From contig JBJHCC010000010.1 in the NCBI GenBank assembly GCA_050485825.1, forward strand, positions 23,895 to 87,894: 64,000 nucleotides of DNA. Direction: 5' to 3'. The translations under genes and the position numbers were made by a program. The notes beneath the pieces are model-generated. The model made no database searches, was not told the origin of the DNA, and worked only from the letters and a program-made list of their open reading frames with translations. Every line of letters starts with the position of its first letter. The stretch's first letter is position 1. Positions 44,210 to 60,995 of the stretch are shown one piece after another. Source of the DNA: Gammaproteobacteria bacterium. Its GTDB lineage: Bacteria; Pseudomonadota; Gammaproteobacteria; Xanthomonadales; Wenzhouxiangellaceae.

Positions 44210-45439
44210 ATGGGGGGTCAATACGTGCTTGAAGAGTGGCGAACGGCCACACCAGAGCTGACGCCGGCGATTCGTCTGCTGCTTTTGTTTTCGCGTATTC
44301 GGCTCTCGGAAGACCAGGCAGCCCGTGCGCAGGCGCTGATGAAGGCTATTGAAGACTGGACCGATTTCGCGAATCGGGCCGCAGATCATTTTCTGGCCCC
44401 CTTGTGCCTCCATCATGTAGCCGCTTTCGCTGCGTCGCCGGAGGTGCTTGCGTGCAGGCGTGCGCTGGTGCCCCACGTGCGGCAAATGACGCTCCATGTT
44501 CTGAGGCTCGCTGCGATGCAGCGTAGATTCGTGCAGAAGCATGTTGCGCCGCTGCAGTGCCGCTATGTCGTCGTGAAGGGGAGAGCGCTTGCGGCTCGGT
44601 ACTATCCGGATTCCAATCTCCGTTATGCCCGCGATGTCGATATTCTTCTACCACGGCAGCGCATCGAAGCGCTCGTCATGTCAGCGCAGCAGGCGGGGTA
44701 TATGGTTTATCCACAACTTCGTCCGCTATCGGCAATAGAAGCGAAGATTGTGGCGGGCAATAGTGCGGTTGTCAGCTTGCTGGGGCCGGACAACATCTTT
44801 ATCGAAGTTCATGCCCAGCTCGACAAGGCCGGATTTCTGCTAGATCACCGGCGGGTGCTGGAGAACAGAAGTCTCCATCCTGTTGATGGCGTCGAGATCG
44901 GCATGCCCTCTACCCTTGACCACTTTGTCTACATCTGTCTGCATCACACCAAGCATTTTTGGTCCAGGCTGAACTGGTTGGCGGATCTGGACGCAATCGT
45001 TCAATCCCCGGATTTCGATGACGCGGCAACCCTCGACTTTGCCCGCTCCAGAGGGCTTGAGGCTACCGTTCGCGCCTGTTTGGCCTTCTACCGCGCCTGC
45101 GCGGAGGAAGATCCAGTCGAAGCGCTATCGGACAACACCGACGCCAGTGACCTTCTGCGGGCTTGCCTCGTCGTTCTGGGCGGTGGCACCGAAAGCGAGT
45201 TTCAGATGCGCCCTGACAGATTGAGCCCTGACTTCAATTTCGCCTGGCAGATTCCTGAAGGTTTCAGGAGCCGGCAGGCGATGTTTCGAGCGCTGTCCCT
45301 GCTGAAGCCCTCCCTACACGACTATGGAGCTTTGAAGTTGCCGCGTTCGATGTACTGGGCCTACTTTCCGATAAAGCCGGTGCTGGTTGGCTGGCGTCGT
45401 CTGATGCATCGTCGGCGATCGGGCGAGCGGTCGGCTTAG
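44210..45439 (+). CDS. Nucleotidyltransferase family protein (NTP_transf_5-like)
   Basis: VVVKGRALAARYYPDSNLRYARDVDILL, IEVH, HHTKH..SRLNWLADL. Confidence 0.85.
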   Translation: MGGQYVLEEWRTATPELTPAIRLLLLFSRIRLSEDQAARAQALMKAIEDWTDFANRAADHFLAPLCLHHVAAFAASPEVLACRRALVPHVRQMTLHVLRLAAMQRRFVQKHVAPLQCRYVVVKGRALAARYYPDSNLRYARDVDILLPRQRIEALVMSAQQAGYMVYPQLRPLSAIEAKIVAGNSAVVSLLGPDNIFIEVHAQLDKAGFLLDHRRVLENRSLHPVDGVEIGMPSTLDHFVYICLHHTKHFWSRLNWLADLDAIVQSPDFDDAATLDFARSRGLEATVRACLAFYRACAEEDPVEALSDNTDASDLLRACLVVLGGGTESEFQMRPDRLSPDFNFAWQIPEGFRSRQAMFRALSLLKPSLHDYGALKLPRSMYWAYFPIKPVLVGWRRLMHRRRSGERSA

Positions 45440-45454
45440 CGGGAGGCCGTTCGG

Positions 45455-46693
45455 ATGCGTTGGCTTGGGTTGAAGGACGGACTACGTTCTTCTCCGCATC
45501 TTCTGTGGTGGTTTTTACTTACCCCCGGGCGCAGCGGTGTCCTGCGCCGGCATGTGCTGCGCCTCAAAGTCGGATCCGCCGGGACGATTTGGAAATGGTT
45601 ATGGGCTGAGCTTCGACGAGCAGCGGTTTGGCCCCTGGTGGTATGGCATGAGCAGCGAGTGTGTCGCAGCGAGCTTGCATTTCGATTGTCAAAACCTCCC
45701 GTGAACTGGCCTGAACTGGTGCTGGTTTGCCTCTTCGCGGGCATCCTGCCCAGGGAGTACCTGATGCTGGAGCTGTATCGAAAGCGCTCCTCTCGCAACT
45801 TGCATCGATTCGTGTTTCCGCAGGAGTTCAAAACGATCTCACTGGCTTATCGGGACGAAAAAGAGGCGGCTTTGCTGGCCGACAAGGCCGCCTTTCATGC
45901 GCTATTGAGCGAAGCGAGTATTCCGACGGTCCCCATTCTCGCCCGCTTTGTCGACGGTACTTGGACGAGAAGGGCGGCGTTGGAAAATTATGGAAGCCTG
46001 TTTGCAAAGCCGACCCGTGGCCACGGTGGTCAGGGCTCCATTCGTATCGAAAGACGATCATCTGACGGTTACCAAGTGGTTGGATGTGGGAGCGCCGAGC
46101 TTGCCCACCCGGCGCTGTATCTTGGCTCCCGTCGGGAAATTGACTATGCGGCACTGCTGAACTATCTGGAGCGTGCGACCGGGTCGGCCGATGTGATCAT
46201 CCAGCCGAACCTTTTCAATGTTGAGTCCCTTCAGTCCATTGCGCCTTCTGGGCTGAGCATTGTAAGAATCGTGACCGTCCGGGCGACCGAAGAGCCCTTG
46301 GTGATCTGTGCCAGTTTCTGTATGCCTTGCAACCGTCAAATCATCAGCCAGCGGGGCTGCTTTGCCCAGATCGACCTTGGCAGTGGCAGGCTGTCGAGTG
46401 CCGCTGACTTCAGCGTCTCGGGTGAGAGACGAACGCATCATCCCGATTCCGGGCAGCTGATCGAGGGTGTTGGAATTCCCCGCTGGAGCGAGGTTGTCGA
46501 TCTGGCGCTAAGGGCGCATGGGCTCTTCCCCAAGACGGCCTTTATCGGCTGGGATATTGCTCCGACACCGCAGGGTCCCCTCGTGCTGGAAGGCAATCTC
46601 AACTTTTGCGTGCAGATGCTCCAGAAATGGCCGGCCAGGCCGCTTCTGGATACCCGCATGTTTCCCTTGCTGAGACAGCTCGCGACCACCTGA
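45455..46693 (+). CDS. Sugar-transfer-associated ATP-grasp protein
   Basis: LADKAAF, FAKPTRGHGGQG, IIQP, IGWDIAPT..GPLVLEGN. Confidence 0.8.
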   Translation: MRWLGLKDGLRSSPHLLWWFLLTPGRSGVLRRHVLRLKVGSAGTIWKWLWAELRRAAVWPLVVWHEQRVCRSELAFRLSKPPVNWPELVLVCLFAGILPREYLMLELYRKRSSRNLHRFVFPQEFKTISLAYRDEKEAALLADKAAFHALLSEASIPTVPILARFVDGTWTRRAALENYGSLFAKPTRGHGGQGSIRIERRSSDGYQVVGCGSAELAHPALYLGSRREIDYAALLNYLERATGSADVIIQPNLFNVESLQSIAPSGLSIVRIVTVRATEEPLVICASFCMPCNRQIISQRGCFAQIDLGSGRLSSAADFSVSGERRTHHPDSGQLIEGVGIPRWSEVVDLALRAHGLFPKTAFIGWDIAPTPQGPLVLEGNLNFCVQMLQKWPARPLLDTRMFPLLRQLATT

Positions 46694-46737
46694 GGCTTGC
46701 AGGGCGTGCACATCGTTTCTGTACGGAAGCCCACATA

Positions 46738-48564
46738 GTGAAGATACTTGAACCAGTTATCACGGTTCGGCGCGTCCTGCCGATTTTGTGGGAAAGTGCG
46801 CGCACGCTGGCGATCCTGACTGGCGTGCTGCTGTTGCTCGAGATCTCTCTTGGCCTGGCAGTGCTGTTCCTGATCAAGCAGTTGGTAGATGTTCTGACTA
46901 CGAATCTTGCGGTGGGGGGGCTGGGCACCGGGCTTGAATCGGTGCTGCGCGCAGTTGTTCTCGCGGGTTCAGCGACCCTCGCCTTGCTGATCGTTCGGGC
47001 AGCTAGTGGCTTGGCCCGGGAAGCACAGGGAATGCGGGTGGCAGACCATGTGGACAGGATGATCCACAATCGGGCGATAGCCGCGGATCTGGCCTTCTAT
47101 GAAAGTCCGCTGTATTTCGATACGCTGCAGCGAGCGCGGCAGTCAGGCAATCAGCGACCCGCCCAGGTTGTGTCCAACCTGCTGATGATGAGCAAGAACC
47201 TGATCATGCTGGTCGGGGTGATTGTCCTGCTGTCCAGCATCAGCTGGACGCTGTTACCGGTGCTACTTATCGCCATAGTACCGGCCTTGCTGGTACGCCT
47301 GTATTTCACCCGGATTCTCTATGAATGGCGAAAGCGGCGAACCCAGCTCGAGCGCCGCGCAGGCTATTTTGACTGGCTGCTTACCTCAGATCTACATGCC
47401 AAGGAGCTGCGCCTGAACCAGCTGGGTGCTGTCTTTCGGGATCTCTATTCGGATATCCGCCAGACGATCCGAAGTGAGCAATTCGGAATCAATCGTCGCC
47501 GCGCGCTCGTTGAGGGTTTGGTGGGTAGCGTGGCGACCCTCGTCTTCTTCGCCGCGCTCGCTTATCTGGCGTTCCAGACGGCTGAAGGTCGAAACACTGT
47601 TGGTGACCTCGTGCTTTTTTTGCTGATTCTGCAACGCGCCCAGGCCATGGGCCAGGAGCTGGTGGGTCAGGTTTCGAGGCTTTTTGAAGACCACCTATAC
47701 ATCAGCCAGCTGTTCGATTTTCTGGAGGTCCGGCCGCGGATTACCAGTCCCAAAAGCCCCGCTGCTCTACCCGAGGAAAAGGGCATCGAGGTCCGCCTCG
47801 AGGCCGTAGACTTCACTTATCCCGGCTGTCGAGATCAGGTCTTGAAGCAGGTCGATCTGCGCATCGCGCCGGGGCAGATCGTGGCGCTGGTCGGCTCCAA
47901 TGGTTCGGGAAAGACATCGCTGATCAAGCTTCTGTGTCGGCTCTACGATCCGAGCGCTGGCCGAGTGCTGGTCGACGGTCGGGATGCCGCGGATTACGAT
48001 CTGGAGGAGTACCGTTCGCTGTTCAGTGTGGTGTTTCAGGATTTTGCCCGCTACGCGTCTACAGTGCGGGAAAACATTCGCTTCGGCGATCTTGATTGCC
48101 CCGTCGATAGCCCGGCCATTCTCGAAGCGGCGAAACTGTCTGGGGCAGCCGACTTCATCGAGCTTTTGCCGAAAAAATATGATACTTTTCTCAATCGTTC
48201 GTTCGACGGTGGCGTGGAGCTCAGCGTCGGACAGTGGCAGAAAATCGCGCTTGCCAGGTCATTCCTGCGACCTTCACGGATCGCCATTCTGGACGAACCG
48301 ACCAGCGCGATCGATCCGAACGCGGAATTCGAACTGTTTGAGAATTTTCGGGAGCGTCTAGGGGGGCGATCGGCGCTGATCATCAGTCACCGGCTGTCGA
48401 CGATTCGCCTGGCGGACTACATTTATGTCCTTGAATCTGGGCGAATTGTTGAGGCCGGTGATCACGACGACCTGATGAGCCGCCAAGGCGTCTACTTCCA
48501 GGCCTTCAGCCGCCAGGGCAAATACTATCGGGATAAGGAAGCGCCGGCTGGAGCCGTGAGCTGA
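46738..48564 (+). CDS. ABC transporter, fused TMD+NBD (RiPP exporter type)
   Basis: GSNGSGKTS, LSVGQWQKIALAR, ILDEPTSAID. The LSxGQWQ form is typical of peptide-exporter ABCs. Start set to GTG 46738. Confidence 0.88.
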   Translation: MKILEPVITVRRVLPILWESARTLAILTGVLLLLEISLGLAVLFLIKQLVDVLTTNLAVGGLGTGLESVLRAVVLAGSATLALLIVRAASGLAREAQGMRVADHVDRMIHNRAIAADLAFYESPLYFDTLQRARQSGNQRPAQVVSNLLMMSKNLIMLVGVIVLLSSISWTLLPVLLIAIVPALLVRLYFTRILYEWRKRRTQLERRAGYFDWLLTSDLHAKELRLNQLGAVFRDLYSDIRQTIRSEQFGINRRRALVEGLVGSVATLVFFAALAYLAFQTAEGRNTVGDLVLFLLILQRAQAMGQELVGQVSRLFEDHLYISQLFDFLEVRPRITSPKSPAALPEEKGIEVRLEAVDFTYPGCRDQVLKQVDLRIAPGQIVALVGSNGSGKTSLIKLLCRLYDPSAGRVLVDGRDAADYDLEEYRSLFSVVFQDFARYASTVRENIRFGDLDCPVDSPAILEAAKLSGAADFIELLPKKYDTFLNRSFDGGVELSVGQWQKIALARSFLRPSRIAILDEPTSAIDPNAEFELFENFRERLGGRSALIISHRLSTIRLADYIYVLESGRIVEAGDHDDLMSRQGVYFQAFSRQGKYYRDKEAPAGAVS

Positions 48565-48611
48565 GCAAGCGGCGTCGCGCAGCCCGGGCCAAATGCTGAA
48601 ATAGCCAACAT

Positions 48612-49496
48612 TTGATGGATTATTGTATGAAGGTGTTTGTGGGTGGTTTGGTGTCCCTCTCTCTGGCATTCGGGCTGGTGGCTGAGAACTTTGCAGGCTC
48701 ACCCGAAGCTTTTGATTTTTCGGATCGAACAGAGCTGAAGACCGGTGGTCATGTGTTGCCTCCCGCTCCGGCCGTCAGGCGCGGTCAGCCGGTGGGTGGA
48801 TTCATCGTCTGGGATAACGGAGGGTTTATCACCCATCCAGGGGCGGGTGTCGATGGTGCGGATGTCAGCATGGCCTCTGAAGATCAAAATTCCGCCGGCG
48901 ACAATGTTCGAAAGCTGGAAAATAATGCCTATTTCCGAATCGCCGACCGGTTCGAGCTTTCGCAAAAGACCGGCCTGCTCACTCTGTCCACGTTCGGCTA
49001 CGAGCCCTTTGTGGCGCCACCAACGTGGACGTCCCGCAACCTCAGGATCTGGGCCGGGGTGCCTGGTGAACCAGGCAGCGAGGTTTTGTTTGAGCGGGAG
49101 TACAGCATTCTTGACGTTCAGTTCACTGGCGTCTATCGAGTGCTTCATCTCGAAAATCTTGATGATGTTCGGAGGCCGATCTATGAAATCTCCTGGGACT
49201 TGGCTGTGGCTGACAGCGCAGCTCCGCTGTGGCTAGAGGAAGGAGAGTACTGGATTGACTGGCAGGTCGTCGGCGGCGTAACCGGTTGGGCGATTTATGT
49301 CATGCAAGCCAATCCAGAGGATCCCGACTATCCGGTTACGCCTTTGGGAGATGCGCTGCAGTTGCGGCCGATCGGCTGGACTGCGAATGAGGTGTCGACA
49401 CCCTTTTTGCTGTTCGGCCTATCCGAGACGCTTTTCCAGGATCGATTCGAGGGGCTTGAACCGCCGGAGGCCAATGAGGAGTTTGTGGCCCCTTGA
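48612..49496 (+). CDS. Secreted beta-rich protein with C-terminal LFQDRFE motif
   Basis: Signal-like N-terminus (LVSLSLAFGLVA); near-terminal ETLFQDRFE. Confidence 0.55.
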   Translation: MMDYCMKVFVGGLVSLSLAFGLVAENFAGSPEAFDFSDRTELKTGGHVLPPAPAVRRGQPVGGFIVWDNGGFITHPGAGVDGADVSMASEDQNSAGDNVRKLENNAYFRIADRFELSQKTGLLTLSTFGYEPFVAPPTWTSRNLRIWAGVPGEPGSEVLFEREYSILDVQFTGVYRVLHLENLDDVRRPIYEISWDLAVADSAAPLWLEEGEYWIDWQVVGGVTGWAIYVMQANPEDPDYPVTPLGDALQLRPIGWTANEVSTPFLLFGLSETLFQDRFEGLEPPEANEEFVAP

Positions 49497-50410
49497 AGCA
49501 TTGGTTTAGTTGCTTCGGCCTCCTTGTGGCCAGCGACCTTGATCTGCGCGGTCAACCGGTTTCGCCAGGCCAGCCTGATTTGGCGCTCCGAGTCCAGCGA
49601 ATCCGGGATAAGCCCGCGCCAAGTCCGACTCAGCAGTGGGGGCGCGATCAGGCAAGGCAATCGAGTTGGGCGCTTTGCCCGGGGATTGCTCGTGTCGAGG
49701 CACATGACAGCGGTGATGTGCTGATCGAGGTGGATGAGGATCTTGATTCGGATAGTCTGCGCTTCGTAGCTGTCACAATTGCATTGCCCCTGGCGCTTCA
49801 GCAGCGCCCGGGATTGATGCTGGAGGCCAGTGCGGTTCGTTGGCACGGGCAGGTGCTGATCATCTGCGGTCGGGGGTACTGCGGCAAGTCGACTCTCGCC
49901 GCCTTGATGGCTGATTTGGGCGCTGAATTGCTGGCGGATTCGCACTGCTTGCTGACCCAAGGTGAATCGGGTGAACTGCTGCTGGGACCAGCTCTTCCAC
50001 ATGTCCGCCTTTGGCCTGCTCAATCGCAGCTGCTTGGGACTGAGTGGCCAGCGCCAGTCACACTCCGCCCCGGGCTTGGCAAGCGCCTGTTTGTCGTTCC
50101 GGAGCGCTTCGCCGCAGATCCCTCGCCCGTTAGCGGACTGATCGTTCTGCGCCGAGGTGTAGACGCCCAATTCAGGCACCATCGCCTCCCTGTTACCGAA
50201 TGCCTCCAGGCTCTGGCCGCGGCCGGCAGTCGTCTAGTCTGCTCTGTAACCCCGGCTCAGACTGCGCTTCGCTTCAGAATCATGACAAAGCTGGCGGCGC
50301 TTCCAATCTGTCACCTCCTGCAATGGCCGCGATGGGGTCAGAATGAACTCGAAACGCGTTCGAGGCTGCTGGAACTGCTGGCTGAGCAGGATTGGGGCGT
50401 TACGGCGTGA
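49493..50410 (+). CDS. HPr-kinase-related protein, degenerate active site
   Basis: LEASAV (usually LHASAV), GRGYCGKSTL Walker A, LLADS (usually DD). Confidence 0.75.
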   Translation: MKHWFSCFGLLVASDLDLRGQPVSPGQPDLALRVQRIRDKPAPSPTQQWGRDQARQSSWALCPGIARVEAHDSGDVLIEVDEDLDSDSLRFVAVTIALPLALQQRPGLMLEASAVRWHGQVLIICGRGYCGKSTLAALMADLGAELLADSHCLLTQGESGELLLGPALPHVRLWPAQSQLLGTEWPAPVTLRPGLGKRLFVVPERFAADPSPVSGLIVLRRGVDAQFRHHRLPVTECLQALAAAGSRLVCSVTPAQTALRFRIMTKLAALPICHLLQWPRWGQNELETRSRLLELLAEQDWGVTA

Positions 50411-51267
50411 TGGTCTTCGGCGCATTGATCTGGCTGGCCTCTTACCCGAAGTCGGGCAATACCTGGATGCGGGTCGTCCTCGGCGCGCTCCTGTTCGGTC
50501 GGGCGCGAGCTGGCGCGACCGACATCAACGAGTTGGAAATCATTGATCATGCCGGGAATCGGGGGCTGATTGAAGCCATTTCTGCCTGTCCGTCCTCGGA
50601 GTTGCACGCCGACGAGATCAATCATTTGCGTCCCGCTGGCTTCAGGCTCCTCGCCGAAAATCGGTCGGGGCTCAGCGTTGTCAAGGTTCATGATGCCTAT
50701 CGGACTCGGAGCGGCTTGGCGTCACCGTTCCCGACGGATGTGTCCGCCCAGGTCATCTACATTGTCCGGAATCCACTTGATGTCTCGGTCTCGTTGGCCG
50801 CTCATCTGGGCGTTAGCCTTGATGAGGCCATCGCAATCATGGATGACGACTTTATCCTCGGCCCCGAGGAGTCTGCCTTGGGTCCTCAGCTTCCTCAGCA
50901 TCTTGGAAGTTGGTCGGATCATGTCCGTAGCTGGACGGCCCAGGACGATTTCCCGATACAGGTCGTTCGCTACGAAGATATGATTCGCGATATCAAGGCG
51001 GAGCTGGTGCGCATCGTGAAGATGCTAGGGCTGCCGGCCACTTCGGATGATGTTTTGGCCGCAGCTGCGGCCGGTGACTTCGATCGACTTCAGCTGGCCG
51101 AGAGTCAGGCCGGTTTTCGTGAAAAACCCGCCAGCCTCAAGGGACGTTTCTTTCGCTCAGGTCGGGCAGGGGGCTGGAGAGAGATCTTGTCCAGTGGGCA
51201 AGTCGACCGCTTGACGGAGCGCCATTCTGACATGATGGATCAATTTGGCTATCTTGGTGCTTCTTGA
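50407..51267 (+). CDS. PAPS-dependent sulfotransferase
   Basis: IWLASYPKSGNTW, VKVH, YIVRNPLDVSVS, GSWSDH, RYED, FFRSG..GGW. Confidence 0.92.
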   Translation: MMVFGALIWLASYPKSGNTWMRVVLGALLFGRARAGATDINELEIIDHAGNRGLIEAISACPSSELHADEINHLRPAGFRLLAENRSGLSVVKVHDAYRTRSGLASPFPTDVSAQVIYIVRNPLDVSVSLAAHLGVSLDEAIAIMDDDFILGPEESALGPQLPQHLGSWSDHVRSWTAQDDFPIQVVRYEDMIRDIKAELVRIVKMLGLPATSDDVLAAAAAGDFDRLQLAESQAGFREKPASLKGRFFRSGRAGGWREILSSGQVDRLTERHSDMMDQFGYLGAS

Positions 51268-51314
51268 TTGGCAGAGCAGTCAGACATCCTGACTTTTGAT
51301 TGGGGAATATCGTA

Positions 51315-51596
51315 ATGAGGACGAAAAGAGTGTTGCGGACCGGAAATGTTCTATCCCACTCGATCGACGGGGAAACCGTCATCCTGAATCTAGATAACGA
51401 GAAATATTTCACCCTGGACACGGTCGGCACAAGATTCTGGGAGGTCATACTTGAGCATGGCGATGGCAAGGAGGCTGTCGATATCCTGCTAGAGGAGTAT
51501 GACGTCGACCGGACAACGCTGGTCGCGGACATGCAACGCTGGGTCGAGGAAGTCATCGAGCTTGGACTGCTAGTACCGACCGCTGAGGACGGCTGA
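51315..51596 (+). CDS. Lasso B1 / PqqD-like RiPP recognition element
   Basis: DGETVILNLDNEKYFTLDTVGTRFWE...EEYDVD...LGLL. Confidence 0.92.
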   Translation: MRTKRVLRTGNVLSHSIDGETVILNLDNEKYFTLDTVGTRFWEVILEHGDGKEAVDILLEEYDVDRTTLVADMQRWVEEVIELGLLVPTAEDG

Positions 51597-51693
51597 AGTC
51601 TGGCTTGTCCCGAATCTGTGCTCAGATTCCACCAGGGCGCCGCCCGATCATGCGCTTCTTGCCCGGATCATCTAGCAACCGATTGGTTTTGTC

Positions 51694-52131
51694 GTGAGAC
51701 GCCTGCGCTGGGCGCTGTATCTGAGCTTGGCATGGGTCGGCCTGCGACTGATTCGCTCGATGCTGAGGATTTTGGGCTATCGAAGGACCGTTCGGCTGCT
51801 GGCATGGCTCTCGCCAACTCCGAAACGATCGGGTTACACGAGGAGCATGCGGGTTGCTGCAAGTGCGATCGAGCGCGTGGATGGCTGGTGGCCAAGGCAG
51901 CCCCGCGGATGTCTGCGACGCTCCCTACTGTTCTGGTGGCTGTTTCGATGGTTGGGATACAGCAGCGAGATTCGAACGGGGGTGCGACGGGATGGCGCTG
52001 AAATCGAGCTCCACGCCTGGGTTGAGAGTCGCGGCTTGATCCTGAATGACCGGGCTGGAAAGGTCAGCCAGTACACAGTCCTTTGGGAGGATATTTCTTC
52101 GGCAGTCGTGGAGTCTGGGGGTAGACGGTGA
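51694..52131 (+). CDS. Lasso B2 leader peptidase (transglutaminase-like)
   Basis: GCLRRSL (catalytic Cys), GVRR, LHAWVE (catalytic His). Confidence 0.92.
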   Translation: MRRLRWALYLSLAWVGLRLIRSMLRILGYRRTVRLLAWLSPTPKRSGYTRSMRVAASAIERVDGWWPRQPRGCLRRSLLFWWLFRWLGYSSEIRTGVRRDGAEIELHAWVESRGLILNDRAGKVSQYTVLWEDISSAVVESGGRR

Positions 52132-53981
52132 GCGCCTTTGTGGCGGTTGTTCATTTTGATGACGCACCTGTTGACTCCAAGCTTGTTCAGGGGCTGGCAA
52201 ATATAGTAGCGTACCGAGGACCCGACGCCAGCGCGGTCTATTGCTCTGGTGCATTGGGTTTGGCGCATCACCTGATGCGCGTGACGCGATCCTGTGCGGA
52301 GGATGCACAACCGCTGGTATCCACTGCTGGTCAGTTTGCGCTTGTCTGCGATGCGCGGTTTGATCAGCGGCGCCTTTTGATCAATGCGCTGCGGGGTCAC
52401 GGGGTTGTTGTTTCGGAAAGATCTCCCAACTCGAGACTGCTGCTTGAAGCCTTGCAGCTTTGGGGGGAAGCGGCTCTTGACAGGATCAAGGGTGACTATT
52501 CCTTTGTGTTTTTTGATCAAGCTCGGCGGCGTGTCATTGCCGCCGTCGATCCTTTTGGACTGCGCACACTTTTCTACGGAACTTTTGAGAATGGACTGGT
52601 GATCAGTAATGATCCATTGCCAGTCCTGGCTCATCCAGCGCTTGATGTTGCTTTGGATCGAACAGCTTTGGCAGACTTTCTGATGACCGGTCGAGTGGGG
52701 GGAATTGACCCTGCGGCTACGCCCTTTCGATTGGTCCGGCAGCTGGTAGGGGGGCATCGAATCAGGCTCGACGTGGACTCAGGCAAGACCGACATTCGTC
52801 GGCACTGGCAGTTTCCGATACAAAGCAAGGCGCTCTATTACAGTTCCCTTGAGGACTACGGCGAGCACTTCCGCTGTGTTTTGAAGGAGGCTGTCAGCGA
52901 CCGCATTGACGCGCCGTCGGTAGTGGCCCCGATGAGCGGTGGGATGGACTCGACCACCGTGGTCGTCACGGCAGCCGAGCTCATAGCCGGTGGTTCTGGG
53001 CCGGATCTCTTCACCGCGGTAACGGCGGTGCAGCATGATCAAGACCCTGAGGGCCTGCTGGCCGCTGAGGTTTGTAGAGCGGCAGGTGTTCCCCATCATA
53101 AAATTGTCGCCAGCCCTGGTAGACCCTTGGCTGCTTGGCGGTGCATGCCGTTTCCGGCGACTGATTTTTTTGACCTATACGAGAACAACCAAAGAGTTTC
53201 GTCCCAGTTTGGTCGCCTGAGCATTAATGCCAGCAGCGCAGATTATGCGCTGTGCCCAGAGCCTTTCAGCATCTTGGGTCAGCTGCGCGCCTCAGGTCTG
53301 AGGGATACCTGGCGTGCTCTAAGGATCATGAAGTCCCAGTACCGGTTTCGTCCTCGGTTTGGGTCCGGGCTTTATTCCTGGTTAAGGCGAACACCGATCG
53401 TCAACCCATACACTCGGCCGCCGTATCCTTACCCGGACTGGTTGTCATCGGATCTTGAGCGGGATTTGGAGCTTCGGGAGCGCTGGGCTGCGCACTGGTC
53501 ACGCTGGCCTTCACCCCAGCACCCATTGCGGCCCACTGCCCATCGAATGATTACTGCAAAGGGGCGCCTCAGCATGCATTCGGTCGGTTGGCCCCTGGAT
53601 TTTGCCTTGCCGGCTCCAGCTGACCCGTTTCTGGACCAGCGCATGATCGAGTTTCTTTGGTCGCTCCCCCCTCTTCCCTGGTTCTATGACAAGCACTTGA
53701 CCCGGACTGCGATGCGAGGCTGGCTACCTGATTCGGTCGTTGATCGTCCGAAGACTCCAGCCCGTCGGTGGCTGCCATCCGCAACCCGTGACGGCGTAGA
53801 TTTTTCCTGGGACCCCGGTGGCTTGATCCTTGAGCTAGTCGACCGATCTCGGCTCAGGGAGCTTAACGACGACGGTGCCTCGGCGGCAGACTTCCACCCC
53901 ATGTTTCTGAATCGGTGGCTGACCTCCTTTGAGGCAGTTTTTGAGCAAATGACGGGGAAAAAGTGCCAACTCACTGTTTAA
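52128..53981 (+). CDS. Lasso cyclase C (asparagine synthase-like)
   Basis: MSGGMDST PP-loop, PFLDQRMIEF, K..RTAM..WLP..V..RPK; no N-terminal catalytic Cys; coupled to B2. Confidence 0.9.
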   Translation: MSAFVAVVHFDDAPVDSKLVQGLANIVAYRGPDASAVYCSGALGLAHHLMRVTRSCAEDAQPLVSTAGQFALVCDARFDQRRLLINALRGHGVVVSERSPNSRLLLEALQLWGEAALDRIKGDYSFVFFDQARRRVIAAVDPFGLRTLFYGTFENGLVISNDPLPVLAHPALDVALDRTALADFLMTGRVGGIDPAATPFRLVRQLVGGHRIRLDVDSGKTDIRRHWQFPIQSKALYYSSLEDYGEHFRCVLKEAVSDRIDAPSVVAPMSGGMDSTTVVVTAAELIAGGSGPDLFTAVTAVQHDQDPEGLLAAEVCRAAGVPHHKIVASPGRPLAAWRCMPFPATDFFDLYENNQRVSSQFGRLSINASSADYALCPEPFSILGQLRASGLRDTWRALRIMKSQYRFRPRFGSGLYSWLRRTPIVNPYTRPPYPYPDWLSSDLERDLELRERWAAHWSRWPSPQHPLRPTAHRMITAKGRLSMHSVGWPLDFALPAPADPFLDQRMIEFLWSLPPLPWFYDKHLTRTAMRGWLPDSVVDRPKTPARRWLPSATRDGVDFSWDPGGLILELVDRSRLRELNDDGASAADFHPMFLNRWLTSFEAVFEQMTGKKCQLTV

Positions 53982-54043
53982 GAAGAAAAAGTTCTTTTGC
54001 GAGTGGCCCTTGGCCTTTCAGTTGGAAGGATGGCTTGAAAAGC

Positions 54044-54072
54044 TTGACATCGGTCACGGATCTGAATAATCT
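54044..54072 (+). promoter_or_regulatory. sigma70 promoter of the precursor gene
   Basis: TTGACA-17 bp-TAATCT; SD AAGGGA at 54095-54100. Confidence 0.65.
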
Positions 54073-54108
54073 ACCTACGCTTGGCCGACTTTCAAAGGGA
54101 CCGATATC

Positions 54109-54270
54109 ATGAAAAAAGAGTACTCTACTCCGAAAATTGCCGCGCTGGGTCAGCACGCTGACTTGGTGGCGGCTGGTGGTGCGTCGTCTGATGTCGACGG
54201 CGTATTTTACCGAGATGGTGAGAAGTTTGCCTCGTTTGGCACCGATCCGAAGACGCCGCCGGTCAGCTGA
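54109..54270 (+). CDS. Lasso precursor peptide, 53 aa (below ORF-track cutoff)
   Basis: MKKEYSTPKIAALGQHADLVA-AGGASSDVDGVFYRDGEKFASFGTDPKTPPVS; leader YxxPxI-x3-G motif, Asp at core positions 7 and 9, C-terminal Ser. Confidence 0.88.
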   Translation: MKKEYSTPKIAALGQHADLVAAGGASSDVDGVFYRDGEKFASFGTDPKTPPVS

Positions 54271-54289
54271 TCGAGCCTTACGGTGGAAG

Positions 54290-54317
54290 AAAGCCGTCGT
54301 ATCGACGGCTTTTTTTT
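54290..54317 (+). terminator. Intrinsic terminator, possibly bidirectional
   Basis: AAAGCCGTCG-TAT-CGACGGCTTT followed by a T run, between convergent genes. Confidence 0.88.
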
Positions 54318-54364
54318 GCCCGGGCTTTGGGAAAACAATCGATATGAATTAGCTCTAAGTCTTA

Positions 54365-55324
54365 TCAAGCGATAGGGGATAGGCGCTTTCGGAATGATGA
54401 TTGATCAAATTGGCAAATCACCGACCCGTGCTTATCGCTCACTTCGCCTTTCCATTGCCATAGATAGGTCTGGTTAGTCCAGTGCGCATGAATTTGCGCC
54501 TCAATTTGGAAGCCTGGTCGAACCTCAATTGCGTGGGGCAGTGGCATAAATGCCTGTCCGTAGATCAGTTCCGGTTCAGCCGGATGGTTTGAAAACCCGA
54601 CCCCTGGAGCAAGCTCCGCATCAAACCATGTGGCAAGCCCATGAAGCAGGCCCGAACGCTTGATCTCCCAAGACATCAGGCCATGGGCGCTGGGTTCTGT
54701 GACGTTGTGGTAGTCGATAGTTAGCCAGTGCTGCGCTTCGCTTAGCATTTGCTCCGGCCGCAGTCTAACCTTGCTCCATCGATTGATCTCGAAATCGGCG
54801 CCCGCGGCTAAGTCCAGTCCGAACGGGTTGATTCGCCAGGGCTCTGTAACTCTGCGATACTCCTCAGGGTGCTCGACTGGAGCCGAGTATAGGTTGTCGC
54901 GGCGGCCAATCAGAATGCCGTCGGGTGCAAGCAGCCGTTCTCTGGCGTCGATGATGCTGGGAATATGTTGCGAGTAGAGTGGAAGAACGCTACGCAAATC
55001 AGAGATGATGACGTTGGCCGAGGTGTCAAGTTCAAGATTACTGGAGACGCCTTCGATGCAGCTCACTCGATCCTGCATGTCGTTTTGCTGAACAAGTCTT
55101 TTCGCCAGTCTGATCGACGGGTTGCATTCAACCGCTATGACCTGTCGGGCCCCCATACGTGCTGCCAGCATGGCAAAAACGCCCGGGCCGGCACCAATTT
55201 CCAGCACTAGATCGCCTGGCTTTATCAGCTTCTGCATGGCAGCCAGGTAGGCCTCCACGCGGGGCTGGTTCAGCACCATGTGACCGAAATGAGTCAGCGT
55301 GTAGCCCGGATCGTGCATATCCAT
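54365..55324 (-). CDS. PRMT-like SAM methyltransferase
   Basis: HMVLNQPRVEAY, VLEIGAGPG, AVECN, then a beta-barrel half (HGLATWFDAEL). Start ATG 55324 after a TAAGG SD. Confidence 0.78.
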   Translation of the reverse strand: MDMHDPGYTLTHFGHMVLNQPRVEAYLAAMQKLIKPGDLVLEIGAGPGVFAMLAARMGARQVIAVECNPSIRLAKRLVQQNDMQDRVSCIEGVSSNLELDTSANVIISDLRSVLPLYSQHIPSIIDARERLLAPDGILIGRRDNLYSAPVEHPEEYRRVTEPWRINPFGLDLAAGADFEINRWSKVRLRPEQMLSEAQHWLTIDYHNVTEPSAHGLMSWEIKRSGLLHGLATWFDAELAPGVGFSNHPAEPELIYGQAFMPLPHAIEVRPGFQIEAQIHAHWTNQTYLWQWKGEVSDKHGSVICQFDQSSFRKRLSPIA

Positions 55325-55326
55325 CC

Positions 55327-56355
55327 TTAAACGTTGGGCTGGAGCGAAAGCGCCTGGCAGAGTTCGCGCGCGCTGGAATCCAGCGTAGATAGCTCCCATG
55401 GCCTGCGGTATTCATAGACCTCTATTTGGCGGGCGATCCGGCCACCAAAGTCGTGAAGTCGAGTTTGGTCGAAATACAACTGGCACAAGGCAGGTCGGTA
55501 GATCGAGTGCATGAATGCCCGGTAGGCGCCTATGCCCCGAATGCGTCGGATTGTTGCCGGCTGATCAGGCTCGCCTCGTGTCAGGATGACGAGCTTCGTC
55601 AATGGCGCAGGTTGATTATGAGAGCCAGACTTCTGCCGTATGTGGAACTTGTCTTCACGGGCCAGATCGCGGCTGAGTCCAGATTTGCTCAGCCCTAGGG
55701 CGTCGAGCGCGCTGGTCCATAGCTTAAGTCGGGGCGGTCCAGGATGCAGCAAGGGATCCGGATCCTCAGGCCTCAGTACGGCAAGATCGTCGCTGACCAG
55801 TGAAAATCCCAGCCGATAATGAAGATAGGCTATAAGCGTTGATTTCCCGGCGCCGGATGGGCCCGTGAACGCCACAGCGCCGTCACCGGTCCTGATGGCA
55901 CTGACGTGTATCGGCAACTGTTGCCGTTGGTGAAGAAGCGCCCCGAGCACCGTGCCGAGCAAATAGGTTCTGACGTCACCTTCCGCCGCTCGTGTCTCCG
56001 CAGTGGTCTGGTCGCGCCGATCCACCGTAATTGTTCTGCCGTCTTCTACAAGGTACCGGGCCACATTGGGGCTTCCAACAATGCATTGTCGAGCGTTAAA
56101 CAGAAGCCACGGCGCGCCCGCGCGACCATTTGGCAGCGTGGTAGGCACCTCGCCAAGGATAATCTCTACGACGTCCTCTTCTTCCGGCTCCGGATGTGAC
56201 GGGCTCAGTTCAGGGATTTCGAGCTGCGATCGTATCGTAAGTCCGCATGTCCGATACACGTGCCACACGGGCTGTCGACTGCGCTTGCCGCGCCTCTCAA
56301 TGGGGCGCGACTCGCGTCCTTCGCTATTGGTCCCGGACGCGGCTATGCTGTTCAT
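55327..56355 (-). CDS. HPr-kinase-related (PadeK-like) kinase, intact motifs
   Basis: IHVSAI, FTGPSGAGKSTL, LVSDD, PRLKLW. Confidence 0.87.
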   Translation of the reverse strand: MNSIAASGTNSEGRESRPIERRGKRSRQPVWHVYRTCGLTIRSQLEIPELSPSHPEPEEEDVVEIILGEVPTTLPNGRAGAPWLLFNARQCIVGSPNVARYLVEDGRTITVDRRDQTTAETRAAEGDVRTYLLGTVLGALLHQRQQLPIHVSAIRTGDGAVAFTGPSGAGKSTLIAYLHYRLGFSLVSDDLAVLRPEDPDPLLHPGPPRLKLWTSALDALGLSKSGLSRDLAREDKFHIRQKSGSHNQPAPLTKLVILTRGEPDQPATIRRIRGIGAYRAFMHSIYRPALCQLYFDQTRLHDFGGRIARQIEVYEYRRPWELSTLDSSARELCQALSLQPNV

Positions 56356-56545
56356 GGTGGGCTCACTCGGGACCGCTCGCTCTCTGGAGATTCTCCGGAT
56401 TCAATAATTTTAAACTCATATCTTCGAAGATAGTGAATCACAGGAGTTTGTACTCGAAAACTCGCTGCTGCGGCTGGGGGACGGCTATTCGGCCTCGGTT
56501 GGACAGGGGTAATTGGTCAGCCCTGTGTTACGCTGATGCCAACTG

Positions 56546-57811
56546 GTGGCTAGGCGAATTCTTTCCGTAATGTCCGGCTTACAATCCTCGACCACCCTCG
56601 GCGTCTCTGCCGATTCGATATTGCAGCGTGCATTCGAGTTGACGCTGTCCATACAGGGCGAGAAAGTGGTCCTCCTGGCCGGCGGCCGGTTTGCCAGCGT
56701 GAGCGCGCATACGCTGGCCATTCTTGATGCATTCGCGACTCCCAAAACCCTGGCGGCCGGCCTCCAGCAGCTTTCTTGCCGATCAAGAGGCTTGCGGGAC
56801 TGGATTCGGCTTAACAACCAGGTTTTAGCGCTAGTTCAGGCCGGGATCCTCGTTGAACCGGATAGCCGCGATGTGCTTTTCCCGTCTCATTCCGGCAGTT
56901 TTTCGAGCCCGGATATTCACATCCGGATGCTCAATGATCAGGTCCGCACCTTGGCATATCAGCAGGCGCTTCGGGAAGTTGTGCGGCCCGGTGACGTGGT
57001 AGTGGATGTCGGGACTGGCACCGGGGTGCTTGCGGCATCCGCTGCGCTTGCGGGGGCTCGGCAGGTCTACGCAGTGGAGCGGACCGGGAATATGCCCAAG
57101 CTCGCTCGGGAGTTTTTCCGGGCGAACGGTCTGGATGGCAGAATTACGTTGATAGAAGGTGACTCTACCGGTGTTCAGTTGCCGGAGCCGGCCGATGTGA
57201 TGGTCAGCGAGATTATCGGAAACGACCCGCTGGCCGAGGGGATAGTTTCAACTACTGCAGATGCGCGCCGAAGGTTGCTGGCAAGCAAGGCCCGGATCAT
57301 CCCCTCTGTGTTGCGGCTTTATGCGCTGCCGTTGACTGCCCCGGACGCGCTCTACCAACAGGCGGTCTTTACGGTCGACCAGGCCGAGAATTGGCGGAAC
57401 CGCTATGGGCTTGATTTTTCAGGATTCGTCGCTGATTGCTCCGCCAGGACCTTCACGACGACAGTCAACACTGCGCGGGTCAAGGCGTGGCCGCGGCTGG
57501 CAGCGCCCATTCTCTTGGAGTCGATTGATTTGGCCGAAGCAACGGTTGAGGCGATCGAAGTGACGCGCGAGTTTGCCGTCGAAGCTTCAGGTCAAATCAA
57601 CTGTATTGTCTTGTACTTCGAGGCTCAGCTCTCGCCTGCGGTTTGTTTGTCCGTTCATCCGGATCACGCCGATGCGGCGAACAGCTGGGCCAGTTGGGCT
57701 TGGTTGCCCGGCCAACCCTTGGCGGTCCGAGCCGGGCAGCGCATGCGGTTGAACTATCGCTTCGACGTGCGCAATAAGTCCTCCATGCTCCTCAGCGAGT
57801 TCCTGCCCTGA
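56546..57811 (+). CDS. PRMT-like methyltransferase with N-terminal RRE/wHTH-like domain
   Basis: HIRMLNDQVRTLAY, VVDVGTGTG, double-E loop VSEIIGNDPLAEG; N-terminal three-strand/three-helix pattern ending LVQAGILVE. Confidence 0.8.
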   Translation: MARRILSVMSGLQSSTTLGVSADSILQRAFELTLSIQGEKVVLLAGGRFASVSAHTLAILDAFATPKTLAAGLQQLSCRSRGLRDWIRLNNQVLALVQAGILVEPDSRDVLFPSHSGSFSSPDIHIRMLNDQVRTLAYQQALREVVRPGDVVVDVGTGTGVLAASAALAGARQVYAVERTGNMPKLAREFFRANGLDGRITLIEGDSTGVQLPEPADVMVSEIIGNDPLAEGIVSTTADARRRLLASKARIIPSVLRLYALPLTAPDALYQQAVFTVDQAENWRNRYGLDFSGFVADCSARTFTTTVNTARVKAWPRLAAPILLESIDLAEATVEAIEVTREFAVEASGQINCIVLYFEAQLSPAVCLSVHPDHADAANSWASWAWLPGQPLAVRAGQRMRLNYRFDVRNKSSMLLSEFLP

Positions 57812-58533: not shown

Positions 58534-59784
58534 ATGTTGAATTTTGAGTGTGGTTTGGTCCTGCGTAGGCGTCGCCGCTCTTCCTTGGCGCTGGTGGTTT
58601 TTCTCATTTTTTCAGTTGGTTGGACGAGTAACGCTGCGGCCAATCCGGCCTTCGATCAGTTCCTGGCCAGCGCCGGTGAGTGGCTGGAGGCTCGACAGCT
58701 GCCAAGCGGCGCTTTCCCCTACTCGGAAGCGGATCCGACAGTTTTTCCCAGTGTCCAGTCGGTTTCTGGCCTGGCGATGCTGGCTGCCTATGAGGCCACT
58801 TGCCGCCTTGGCAACTGCAATACCGACTTTCTGGACTCGGCGGTTTTGGCCGGCGATTACATGATCGGGGGCGGCTTTGGTAATTTTTCACCTAACACAG
58901 GCCTTCCACGTATTCGGACGTTTGACCCGCTGCTTTTGGTGCGCCTGTCAGAGGCAACTGGGGATCCCCAGTACGCCGACTTTATCCAGGTGAACTTCTG
59001 GCAGCGTCTGGAAGACGGCATCTACGGGCCGCAGAACAATTGGGATATCGACGACTATGTAGCCTCCGAACTCGCTCGTCGCGCGGGTGCCCCGAGCACC
59101 GGGCCGATCGTGGCCGCCTGGGACTTGGCTCTGATAGCAGCTGCCGCCCGGGAAGCAGGTATCAACCAGTTCAATGCCTCGCTGGCCGTCGGCGCCAGCA
59201 CGGCCCTGGAGTCTGCTACCGACGCCGGGACCTCGATCGGCGCGAGCGGCTTTGATGTTCTGGGCTTGACCGGTGCAGTGTGGATGGGCGCATTGACTGG
59301 CCTCTCGACCGTGCCGGGCTCTGGTCCCTGGTCGGGCGTTGCCGGGAATTCGGGGCTTGCCAGCCTGCTGATGCAGTACCAAGGCCCGCAGGGTGGGTTC
59401 CTGCAGAGTTCGGCGGCCGGCTCTTCTCCTGTTCAGGATGTGGATACAGTTAGCCAGAATACTGCTTTTGCAATTGTGGGGCTCCATCAGTTGAATCGCG
59501 TCGCCTATGGCCACTCGATTCTGCGGGGTCAGGAGGCGCTGGTTGAGGTCTTCCAGGAGCCCAGTGGGCGAGTCAACTACTATCATCCGGACGTTGATCT
59601 GAGCTCGGTGGCTGATCCCAAGCCTTACTTGCATGTCCACGCCTATGCGTTGTTCGCCTTGGCCGACACCCGCGACCTGCCGGATCCGGCCCCGGTTCCG
59701 GTCAATGATTGGCGCCTGCTTTCGCTGCTGGCGCTGCTGATGCTGGTGCTCGGCTGGACGGGCTTGGTGGTTCGCCGGCAGTAG
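58534..59784 (+). CDS. Exported alpha/alpha-barrel-like protein with IPTL-CTERM-like C-terminal anchor
   Basis: Signal peptide; Q..SGAF / Q.PQGGF QW-like repeats; tail PVPVNDWRLLSLLALLMLVLGWTGLVVRRQ. Confidence 0.6.
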   Translation: MLNFECGLVLRRRRRSSLALVVFLIFSVGWTSNAAANPAFDQFLASAGEWLEARQLPSGAFPYSEADPTVFPSVQSVSGLAMLAAYEATCRLGNCNTDFLDSAVLAGDYMIGGGFGNFSPNTGLPRIRTFDPLLLVRLSEATGDPQYADFIQVNFWQRLEDGIYGPQNNWDIDDYVASELARRAGAPSTGPIVAAWDLALIAAAAREAGINQFNASLAVGASTALESATDAGTSIGASGFDVLGLTGAVWMGALTGLSTVPGSGPWSGVAGNSGLASLLMQYQGPQGGFLQSSAAGSSPVQDVDTVSQNTAFAIVGLHQLNRVAYGHSILRGQEALVEVFQEPSGRVNYYHPDVDLSSVADPKPYLHVHAYALFALADTRDLPDPAPVPVNDWRLLSLLALLMLVLGWTGLVVRRQ

Positions 59785-59846: not shown

Positions 59847-59955
59847 CTTGTCTGGCCCCAGCCTGAGCCGCGGCCGCCTGGCGTTAGCTGGGGAAGACCC
59901 CGGCAGTTTTTTCGCTATCCTTCTTGCCCAATACTTTCGCCGCAGGGTGTGGGTC

Positions 59956-60615
59956 ATGCAGCGTTTTTTTGACATCGTGTTCTCGGCGCTGGCGCTGTTG
60001 GTTCTGGCGCCCCTGCTGGTTCCTATTGTTGTTCTGCTGCGCCTGACCGGGGAGGGCGAGGTTTTTTTCGGTCAGCTGCGGATAGGGCAGGGCGGTCGGC
60101 CGTTTCGCCTGCTGAAGTTCGCGACCATGCTCAAGGACAGCCCCAATCTCGGGACGGGCACCCTGACCGTCAAGAACGACCCGCGGGTGCTGCCGATGGG
60201 GCGATTCCTGCGCAAGACCAAGCTCAATGAACTGCCGCAGCTGATCAATATCCTCGCCGGCGACATGAGCGTGATTGGGCCCCGGCCGCAGACTCAGCGC
60301 TGCTTTGACGCGTTTCCGGCACGTTCTCAGATGGAGATCATCAAGGTCCGGCCGGGCTTGTCCGGGATCGGGTCGATCGTGTTTCGCGACGAAGAGGAGC
60401 TGATGGCCCATGCCCGCGACCCCGACGCCTACTATGACCAGGTGGTCATGCCCTACAAAGGGCGGCTGGAAGAGTGGTTCGTCGCCCGTCGCTCTCTTTA
60501 TGTGTATTTCGCCCTGATTGCCTTGACGGTCTGGGTGATTCTGTTTCCCAACAGCGAAGCGGTGTTCCGGGTTTTCCCGGACTTGCCCCCGCGCCCCCCC
60601 GAGATGGACGGGTGA
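59956..60615 (+). CDS. Priming phosphoglycosyltransferase (Bac_transf, PglC/WcaJ-like)
   Basis: RFFD, FRLLKFATM, FLRKTKLNELPQL.N...GDMSVIGPRP, RPGLSG. Confidence 0.92.
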   Translation: MQRFFDIVFSALALLVLAPLLVPIVVLLRLTGEGEVFFGQLRIGQGGRPFRLLKFATMLKDSPNLGTGTLTVKNDPRVLPMGRFLRKTKLNELPQLINILAGDMSVIGPRPQTQRCFDAFPARSQMEIIKVRPGLSGIGSIVFRDEEELMAHARDPDAYYDQVVMPYKGRLEEWFVARRSLYVYFALIALTVWVILFPNSEAVFRVFPDLPPRPPEMDG

Positions 60616-60668
60616 GGCAAATCCCTCGCCGGTGGCGCGATCCTCGTTCGACGGAAACCGTCGGTCGA

Positions 60669-60995
60669 GTATGTCGGCCCTACGCGGCTGACGGACCATG
60701 TGTGCCGCAACCCGATATCGTCCGTCGGGGACGTGGCCCCGACCTACTCGGTGCCAGTCGATGCCGCAGAGAATTCATTGGGCGCGGTTTACGTAGGTCG
60801 GCCCCACGTGGCCGACGGACCGTGTATGCCGAAGCCCGATATCGTCCGTCGGGGACGTGGCCCCGACCAACTCGGTGCCGGTCGATACCTCGGAGCATTC
60901 ATTGGGCGCGGTTTGCGTAGGTCGGCCCCACGCGGCCGACGGACCAGGATTGCCGAAGCCCCACATCTTCCGTCGGGGACGTGGCCCCGACCGAC
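60669..60995. repeat. REP array 3: three pairs, 124-bp period
   Basis: Units at 60669 (degenerate), 60793 and 60917. Confidence 0.9.

Follow-up and report, generated by a model that had tools for sequence, protein, structure and literature searches.

A region of 13 genes at positions 44210–57811 of a 64,000-nt stretch of gammaproteobacterial (Wenzhouxiangellaceae) DNA, called here the window and the source of all coordinates given without a locus name, is, judged by its sequence, a genuine and intact class II lasso-peptide biosynthetic cluster. An open reading frame (ORF) map combined with Pfam and NCBIfam profiles resolved all 13 genes as intact and densely arranged, and the contiguous B1, B2, cyclase and precursor genes and the ABC exporter described in the initial annotation were each recovered whole. 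The gene order is common to the window and to six related loci from metagenomes or metagenome-assembled genomes (L004, L006, L009, L098, L099 and L101), which together are referred to below as the lineage; tailoring genes, in sets that differ between loci, accompany the lasso core genes in these six loci. The explanation that best accounts for the region, and one that we consider highly probable, is a functional-looking class II lasso cluster that was acquired within a low-GC surface-polysaccharide island; we infer every modification site and all of the tailoring chemistry from sequence. The features of the cluster are as follows.

44210–45439, + strand: NT, PF14907 nucleotidyltransferase (Pfam NTP_transf_5, E 1.5e-28; annotated like PsmN/BsfN)
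45455–46693, + strand: AG, ATP-grasp ligase, PF14397 (Pfam ATPgrasp_ST, E 7e-31)
46606–48564, + strand: ABC exporter (D) (ABC_tran and ABC_membrane)
48612–49496, + strand: U294, 294-aa secreted/periplasmic protein (signal-like N-terminal helix; probable start ATG 48627)
49493–50410, + strand: K2, degenerate HprK-like paralogue (26% identity to K1)
50392–51267, + strand: ST, sulfotransferase of the 3'-phosphoadenosine-5'-phosphosulfate (PAPS) type (Sulfotransfer_1, E 3.8e-21; probable start ATG 50410)
51300–51596, + strand: B1, PqqD-type recognition element (RRE) of peptides that are synthesized on ribosomes and modified after translation (RiPPs) (PqqD, E 1.4e-13)
51694–52131, + strand: B2, transglutaminase-like leader peptidase (Transglut_core3, E 2.3e-18)
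52128–53981, + strand: C, asparagine-synthetase-like lasso cyclase (Asn_synthase, GATase_7, GATase_6)
54109–54270, + strand: A, 53-aa precursor (conserved ORF directly after C)
54283–54320, no strand: hairpin and T8 terminator in the gap where A and MT1 converge (terminator-scan match 54296–54309)
54365–55324, − strand: MT1, methyltransferase of the protein arginine methyltransferase (PRMT) fold (Pfam PRMT_C and PrmA)
55327–56355, − strand: K1, HprK-like peptide kinase (weak match to TIGR04352; intact H...GPSGAGKST...DD)
56356–56545, no strand: K1/MT2 divergent intergenic region, 190 bp (gene map)
56546–57811, + strand: MT2, RRE-like domain and canonical PRMT (called start ATG 56570, giving 413 aa)

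On the plus strand the genes run in the order NT, AG, ABC exporter, U294, K2, ST, B1, B2, C and A. The K1–MT1 pair on the minus strand converges on the precursor gene, and MT2 diverges from K1. The MT1 start lies 3–9 nt past the K1 stop, the ST reading frame overlaps K2, and a probable GTG start at 46738 gives the ABC exporter 608 aa, the length of its L004 homologue. A promoter role is presumed for the 190-bp region between K1 and MT2; a promoter scan gave no call above shuffled background that fitted the gene starts, including in this region. Seven flanking tailoring genes had been proposed initially. There are in fact eight non-core genes, and the description as tailoring enzymes suits them only in part: U294 is secreted and not enzyme-like, and K2 is a catalytically degenerate kinase paralogue.

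Precursor peptide and core pathway

The leader of precursor A reads MKKEYSTPKIAALGQHADLVA and is followed by a predicted 32-aa core, AGGASSDVDGVFYRDGEKFASFGTDPKTPPVS. The precursor gave a weak match to NF033528 (lasso_cyano), and homologues occupy the same position in all six related loci. An alignment of the lineage precursors, gap-free in the leader, gives the pattern Y(-17)xxP(-14)x[IV](-12)...G(-8)...V(-2)A(-1), in which Y5, P8 and I10 of precursor A set Ala22 as core residue 1 and place Asp at core positions 7 and 9. This register is common to >80 related precursors, and the motif spacing and register have been established for BsfA (PMC10368454). The sequence features by which class II lasso clusters are recognized are largely present: B1, B2 and C adjoin a short precursor, which combines a YxxPxL-type leader with a small residue at core position 1 and Asp at positions 7 and 9. 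Thr(-2), a further such feature, is replaced by Val in all seven lineage members; because Ile or Val at this position has been documented among phosphorylated lasso peptides, for example those of Sphingomonadales and Acidobacteriaceae (PMC10368454), Val(-2) does not exclude membership of the group.

All seven lineage precursors have Asp9, Lys18-Phe19 and a Ser at the C-terminus, and Asp9 falls in the same alignment column as the acceptor Asp of Acidobacteriota cores. In the proposed pathway, B1 would bind the precursor by its YxxPxI leader, B2 would cleave after Val(-2)-Ala(-1), the cyclase would join Ala1 to Asp9 (Asp7 being the less likely acceptor) and the ABC protein would export the product. 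A 71-aa ORF at 54137–54352 was also considered as precursor and was ruled out, since it merely overlaps the conserved 53-aa ORF in another frame.

Kinase K1, nucleotidyltransferase and the two PRMT-related enzymes

K1 reads IHVSA...GPSGAGKST...SDD and contains the His, the GxxGxGKS P-loop and the Asp-Asp pair that define HprK-like lasso kinases (PMC10368454, PMC9266682), residues that proved important when mutated in BsfK (PMC10368454). Together with the B1/B2/C/A set, this motif bears out the original description of a paeninodin-like, kinase-bearing lasso cluster. Phosphorylation of a C-terminal Ser is the known chemistry of PadeK, ThcoK, SyanK and PsmK (PMC8498205, PMC6993621), and by analogy K1 probably acts on the linear precursor and phosphorylates Ser32, its invariant C-terminal residue, although BsfK phosphorylates Ser3 and not the C-terminal Ser (PMC10368454). 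The PF14907 nucleotidyltransferase could then decorate the Ser32 phosphate, as PsmN does; PsmN has been termed an uncharacterised NTP transferase and adds hexose to phospho-Ser (PMC6993621). This second step is plausible by the same analogy and is proposed with some reserve. Comparison of K1, K2 and AG with PDB sequences yielded nothing useful other than a weak match of K1 to the P-loop of phosphoenolpyruvate carboxykinase-like proteins.

The pairing of a kinase with a PRMT-like enzyme is not confined to the window and forms a module found in many bacteria. Two MT1 signature peptides occur in 257 species-representative genomes, mostly of Pyrinomonadaceae and other Acidobacteriota and also of Chromatiaceae, cyanobacteria, Chloroflexota and delta- and alphaproteobacteria, and a large protein collection contained 568 MT1 relatives. 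We inspected 80 MT1 loci, many of which end at contig ends, and found a K1 homologue directly beside MT1 in ~72 and a cyclase in ~68; an NT homologue was present in 57 of the 85 loci scanned, a set that includes five lineage loci. The genes usually run in the order B1-(B2)-C-A-K1-MT1-ABC-NT. These loci represent a widespread, uncharacterised kinase and PRMT-like lasso subfamily, to which the window lineage adds a predicted second PRMT-like enzyme (an RRE-fused canonical PRMT), a putative sulfotransferase with its pseudokinase and a candidate ATP-grasp ligase, all with one 32-aa core. Most of the Acidobacteriota K1–MT1 lasso loci (L008, L010–L088) have no detectable B2 within 10 kb, and phmmer searches with the window B2 as query retrieved a homologue in 21/85 loci. 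As pseudomycoidin has been reported to be made without B1/B2 (PMC6993621), the absence of B2 from the Acidobacteriota loci may be real and not a limit of sensitivity.

Both methyltransferases are PRMT-related, as first proposed, MT1 by its profile match to PRMT8 and PRMT1 and MT2 by its match to TbPRMT7 and by Foldseek. They do not form the single extra methylation layer that had been envisaged: MT1 is without the double-E and THW residues of PRMTs, whereas MT2 keeps the double-E pair and is fused to an RRE-like domain.

MT1 belongs to the PRMT fold by sequence profile, its family profile matching PRMT8 and PRMT1 with E values of 8e-43 to 4e-42 over 267 columns, yet its active site is remodelled. 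In the double-E loop the first Glu has become an invariant Asp, at the position after strand beta4, and the second a variable residue; within the loop an Arg is likewise invariant and a His nearly so, there is an invariant Tyr, and THW is replaced by an invariant I-Y-G. With the double-E and THW residues lost, MT1 should not be filed as an arginine methyltransferase. Coupled translationally to K1 and devoid of the arginine-binding residues, MT1 would methylate a non-Arg group, and our first choice, put forward tentatively, is the epsilon-amine of the invariant Lys18. The Asp kept at the nitrogen-binding position favours N-methylation. Among 81 distinct cores from loci that contain MT1 only, Lys is present in 72 and a basic residue lies within the last six positions in 74, typically 7–10 residues past the acceptor, which is the position of Lys18 in the window.

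Two of the 81 cores, however, have neither Lys nor Arg, which weakens Lys as a universal MT1 target. L009 has MT1 yet is without the C-terminal PK motif, which also counts against the proposed assignments. Our second choice of target, a doubtful one, is the phosphate or the C-terminal carboxylate. K1 would then phosphorylate the C-terminal Ser/Thr and MT1 would O-methylate that phosphate or the neighbouring carboxylate, giving a capped phosphodiester or a methyl ester. The adjacency of K1 and MT1 in ~72/80 loci and their coupling in the window speak for such a sequence of events, as do the presence of Ser/Thr among the last four residues of 74/81 cores and the two cores devoid of Lys and Arg; the loss of the second Glu and the gain of Arg, His and Tyr around the pocket would suit an anion, and methyl esterification of the C-terminus is already known among lasso peptides, where an unrelated enzyme carries it out (lassomycin/StspM; PMC8498205). 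However, an invariant Asp at the position of the methyl-acceptor nitrogen would sit awkwardly beside a phosphate or carboxylate, NT, where present, would compete for the same phosphate, and our literature searches found no precedent for an O-methyltransferase of the PRMT fold. We regard this O-methylation route as rather unlikely and retain Lys18 as the slightly preferred candidate. About 40 MT1 homologues have a C-terminal extension of 70–80 aa, which the window MT1 does not have; the idea that it might be an RRE was dropped after hhalign gave a probability of 2.7%.

MT2 shares 31% identity with MT1 and resembles canonical PRMTs far more closely in its active site. It matched TbPRMT7 in the PDB with an E value of 6e-26, and its AlphaFold2 (AF2) model (pLDDT 89.9) combines a class I S-adenosylmethionine (SAM) fold with a C-terminal beta-barrel, for which the best Foldseek matches were TbPRMT7, CARM1, PRMT6 and PRMT3 (E ~1e-24 and TM 0.7–0.79 for the first three). 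The SAM motif is VVDVGTGTG. The segment SEIIGNDPLAE aligns with SEIFGTMMLGE of TbPRMT7, and both Glu residues of the double-E pair are invariant in 116/116 homologues; the THW loop reads NSW, with an invariant Trp and a middle residue for which 82 of the 116 have Ser and 32 have His. Homology to lasso B1 proteins extends over the first ~110 residues (hhalign of 101 MT2 N-termini against 60 B1 sequences, probability 92.5%, E 5e-7). In the AF2 model this N-terminal domain has strands at residues 17–45 and helices at 47–54, 61–69 and 75–90, that is, the sheet followed by three helices of an RRE, and its Pfam PqqD match falls short of E 0.01.

The distribution of Arg in the precursors suggests a target for MT2. 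Within the lineage, Arg14 is found exactly where MT2 is present (the window, L004 and L009), and it is replaced by Gln in L006 and L099 and by Glu in L098 and L101; tblastn found no MT2 in these four loci, in which the site next to K1 is taken by another gene. MT2-type genes lie inside lasso clusters in L004, L009, L086, L097 (from a Bacteroidota genome), L100, L104, L106, L112, L116, L152 and L183. All ten precursors identified beside MT2-type genes (window, L004, L009, L086, L097, L100, L104, L106, L112 and L183) have Arg in the core, against 21/81 distinct cores from MT1-only loci. The residue lies 4–5 positions past the acceptor as R14 in the window, L004 and L009 and as R13 in L086; L100 also has R13, in a T(-2) register rather than the Y(-17) one. 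These patterns are consistent with a model in which MT2 would dock on the leader via its own RRE-like domain and N-methylate the loop residue Arg14.

Several observations call for caution here. The site comparisons are small and phylogenetically non-independent, and the Arg14/MT2 pattern may go back to no more than about two independent events. MT2-type cores also exceed those of Acidobacteriota in length, which by itself raises the chance of finding an Arg. MT2-family genes are found outside lasso clusters as well, in L096 with free PqqD genes alongside and in L095 and P0233 in unrelated contexts. Because the comparison is small and non-independent and the cores are longer, we consider the case for docking and Arg14 methylation by MT2 to be evenly balanced.

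In L096 (10001–18747), an MT2-type RRE-PRMT gene stands beside a free PqqD, two glycosyltransferase-PqqD fusions, another PqqD-containing protein and a Sulfotransfer_2 protein, and the locus has no lasso genes. It may represent a different, glycosylated RiPP class that employs the same methyltransferase.

Sulfotransferase, pseudokinase and accessory genes

ST has both elements expected of a PAPS-dependent enzyme, a 5'-phosphosulfate-binding motif SYPKSGNTW and a 3'-phosphate-binding motif YIVRNPLDVSVS, and it is kept between K2 and B1 in L004, L006, L098, L099 and L101. Its neighbour K2 retains the P-loop, whereas in 6/6 lineage members the catalytic His is replaced by Glu or Gln and the DD pair by DS or DE; mutation of these residues cripples BsfK (PMC10368454). 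Six lineage loci have both K2 and ST; L009 has neither. In the divergent L100 cluster, an ST with 37% identity is again accompanied by a degenerate kinase (H to N, GKS to GRS, DD to DS). This recurring combination suggests that the predicted pseudokinase has been reused as a substrate adaptor. The core residue at position 13 points in turn to a possible substrate, being Tyr in 5/6 ST-bearing lineage members and Phe in L009, where ST is absent; L098, which has ST but Ile13 instead of Tyr, does not fit. We tentatively propose that the dead-kinase paralogue K2 could present the substrate and that ST could O-sulfate Tyr13.

AG is only weakly related to RimK (TIGR02291, E 4e-10, under that model's cut-off), and homologues are found beside the same cluster type in L004 and L098. 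It would be expected to ligate an amino acid or amine to a carboxylate. U294 had no Pfam, NCBIfam or PDB match. A domain of ~200 aa from this protein recurs in 1151 representative proteins, some of them large and with PPC, fn3, Big_2 or subtilase domains; an AF2 model of U294 built from four sequences reached pLDDT 36 and was unusable. Given its signal peptide, its extracellular accessory-type domain and the absence of an enzyme-family match, a role for U294 as a tailoring enzyme was rejected; it is predicted to be a secreted accessory protein and is not an obvious tailoring enzyme.

Genomic setting and relation to known systems

The cluster lies within a ~55-kb stretch of GC 0.56–0.63, flanked by DNA of 0.65–0.69. 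This stretch is a surface-polysaccharide locus, with Wzz/BY-kinase, ABC transporter, GT4 glycosyltransferase, DegT, Polysacc_synt_2, Bac_transf and DUF218 genes and a second PF14907 gene. No MT1 homologue was found in 58 other species of the genus, which is consistent with horizontal acquisition, and only relatives with 28–31% identity were found in three genomes elsewhere in the family. Ribosomal protein L2 of this genome gave 437–451 bits against PDB entries from Pseudomonas, E. coli and Acinetobacter ribosomes and ~345 bits against entries from Bacillus or Staphylococcus, by which the host is taken to be a gamma- or betaproteobacterium and the original placement in a proteobacterium is supported.

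This setting bears on two other readings of the region, both of which we consider improbable. Only the core genes with K1, MT1 and perhaps NT might serve the peptide, and ST, K2, AG, NT and U294 might belong to a neighbouring pathway for a sulfated exopolysaccharide. The polysaccharide genes of the window lend this some weight, as do the name of PF14397 ('sugar-transfer associated') and the extracellular-type domain of U294; both PF14397 and PF14907 are families typical of polysaccharide loci as well, and the location of the cluster inside such a locus likewise tells against a peptide-tailoring role for these genes. Yet the disputed genes lie within the operon, from exporter to B1, with overlapping or near-abutting frames, and the block ABC-(U294)-K2-ST-B1-B2-C-A is kept in the other lineage loci (K2 and ST being absent from L009), whose outer flanks differ. 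Moreover, K2 is a paralogue of a peptide kinase and not of a sugar enzyme, and NT accompanies lasso clusters of the MT1 type in 57 loci where no polysaccharide genes are seen.

Alternatively, the region could be a silent or decaying horizontally acquired island that gives no mature product in this host. The GC of the region, 0.56–0.59 compared with 0.65–0.69 in the flanks, and the absence of MT1 from the 58 other species of the genus would agree with such a fate, as would a toxin–antitoxin cassette and a miniature inverted-repeat transposable element-like sequence noted nearby in the first, sequence-only reading, and silence in the laboratory is frequent among lasso clusters, bsf being an example (PMC10368454). 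Decay is difficult to reconcile, however, with 13/13 intact reading frames, conserved catalytic motifs, coupled starts and a conserved precursor with a clean terminator behind it, and a functional-looking cluster within an acquired island remains the explanation that we prefer.

Glycan-related genes recur near clusters of this type. A small Bac_transf phosphoglycosyl transferase, usually with DUF218, adjoins the lasso cluster in the window (59848–61856), L004 (5705–7147), L006 (7396–8837) and L101 (1066–1740), and in the Bacteroidota MT2-type lasso locus L097 (3015–3740) DUF218 and a family 2 glycosyltransferase (GT2) are present without Bac_transf. This proximity hints at a functional link between the cluster type and glycan synthesis. 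Between MT2 and Bac_transf in the window lies a 416-aa ORF with no Pfam match (58534–59784); an unannotated 414-aa ORF a few genes away in L004 (4201–5445) is of similar length.

A second lasso-type gene set lies downstream, at 61810–64000 of the window and continuing past its end in the same contig (L094:4705–15429). It includes another PF14907 nucleotidyltransferase (61810–62919), a third HprK-like kinase with intact H/GKS/DD on the minus strand (63307 to ~64242), and a 1461-aa Peptidase_C25/GEVED protein, followed by minus-strand B2, B1 and C. The candidate precursor of this set (L094:12359–12634, minus strand) reads ...YVPPAFERHPLQLITLGGSPGLADSGD... and has a long acidic tail. Beyond the window, where the contig ends, there are upstream of the second cyclase (L094:15420–15864) several near-identical short repeats, whose translations read ...GRSGPRPRRTM... 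in several frames.

Among the characterised systems close to the cluster, the paeninodin type (PadeK, ThcoK, SyanK) shares with it split B1/B2, a cyclase, an ABC exporter, an HprK-like kinase with H/GKS/DD and a precursor ending in Ser. Sulfotransferase and nucleotidyltransferase genes have been reported in some paeninodin-type clusters, whereas their descriptions include no PRMT-fold methyltransferase, dead-kinase paralogue or ATP-grasp ligase (PMC8498205, PMC9266682); the window further differs in having Val for Thr at -2 and a long, 32-aa core. A Gram-negative member is in itself not new, since SyanK from Sphingobium yanoikuyae and BsfK from Bradymonas sediminis have already been characterised (PMC8498205, PMC9266682, PMC10368454). 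The bsf cluster of the latter species (BsfA/B1/B2/C/D/K/N) likewise combines a proteobacterial kinase and nucleotidyltransferase with a YxxPxL leader and a residue other than Thr at -2, but its kinase phosphorylates Ser3 and it has no methyltransferase, sulfotransferase or ATP-grasp gene (PMC10368454). The pseudomycoidin cluster of Bacillus pseudomycoides (PsmK/PsmN; PMC6993621) provides the model for K1 and the putatively PsmN-like NT; it belongs to a Firmicute and is devoid of methyl, sulfo and ATP-grasp genes.

The wider kinase and PRMT-like subfamily of Acidobacteriota, Chromatiaceae, cyanobacteria and Chloroflexi has in common with the window the K1–MT1 pair (MT1 42–47% identical), the leader register, NT and the ABC exporter. 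It differs in its Gly-rich cores of 17–24 aa ending in a K-T motif, in often having no detectable B2, and in being without ST, K2, U294, AG and, rare exceptions such as L086 aside, MT2. With the eukaryotic PRMTs (PRMT1, PRMT6, CARM1 and TbPRMT7), MT2 shares the Rossmann and beta-barrel domains, the SAM motif, the double-E Glu residues and the Trp of the THW loop, adding an N-terminal RRE-like domain and NSW for THW; MT1 has only the fold in common with them, with D/R/H/Y in place of E/E/H. Unlike these enzymes, MT1 and MT2 are both bacterial and located in RiPP clusters.

Reviews list methyl ester, aspartimide, phosphorylation, glycosylation, citrullination, hydroxylation, epimerisation, acetylation, prenylation and a second isopeptide as known lasso modifications. 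The initial view that no lasso cluster with PRMT-fold enzymes had been characterised was upheld by reviews from 2021, 2022 and June 2026 and a targeted full-text search, and the literature covered, to June 2026, contained no lasso modification by a PRMT-fold enzyme, a sulfotransferase or an ATP-grasp ligase. At its most elaborate, the product could carry four or five marks (sulfo-Tyr13, methyl-Arg14, the methyl group added by MT1 and an NT-extended phospho-Ser32) and be tied to the glycan pathway, for instance by glycosylation through its phosphate or by anchoring to the exopolysaccharide, with K2 acting as a substrate-presenting subunit of ST. We offer this full combination, including the glycan tie, as a long shot; if true, the peptide would be a first on two counts, as a sulfated and as an arginine-methylated lasso peptide, and would reveal a new role for a pseudokinase in the making of RiPPs.

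The great stability of lasso peptides makes them valued scaffolds, and with every further tailoring enzyme the range of possible constructs grows. The cluster is a good genome-mining lead in this respect and holds both kinds of bacterial PRMT-like enzyme beside one small substrate. The relatives without MT2, which lack Arg14, offer a natural test case, and the MT2-type enzyme would, if our proposal is true, be a leader-guided peptide arginine methyltransferase.

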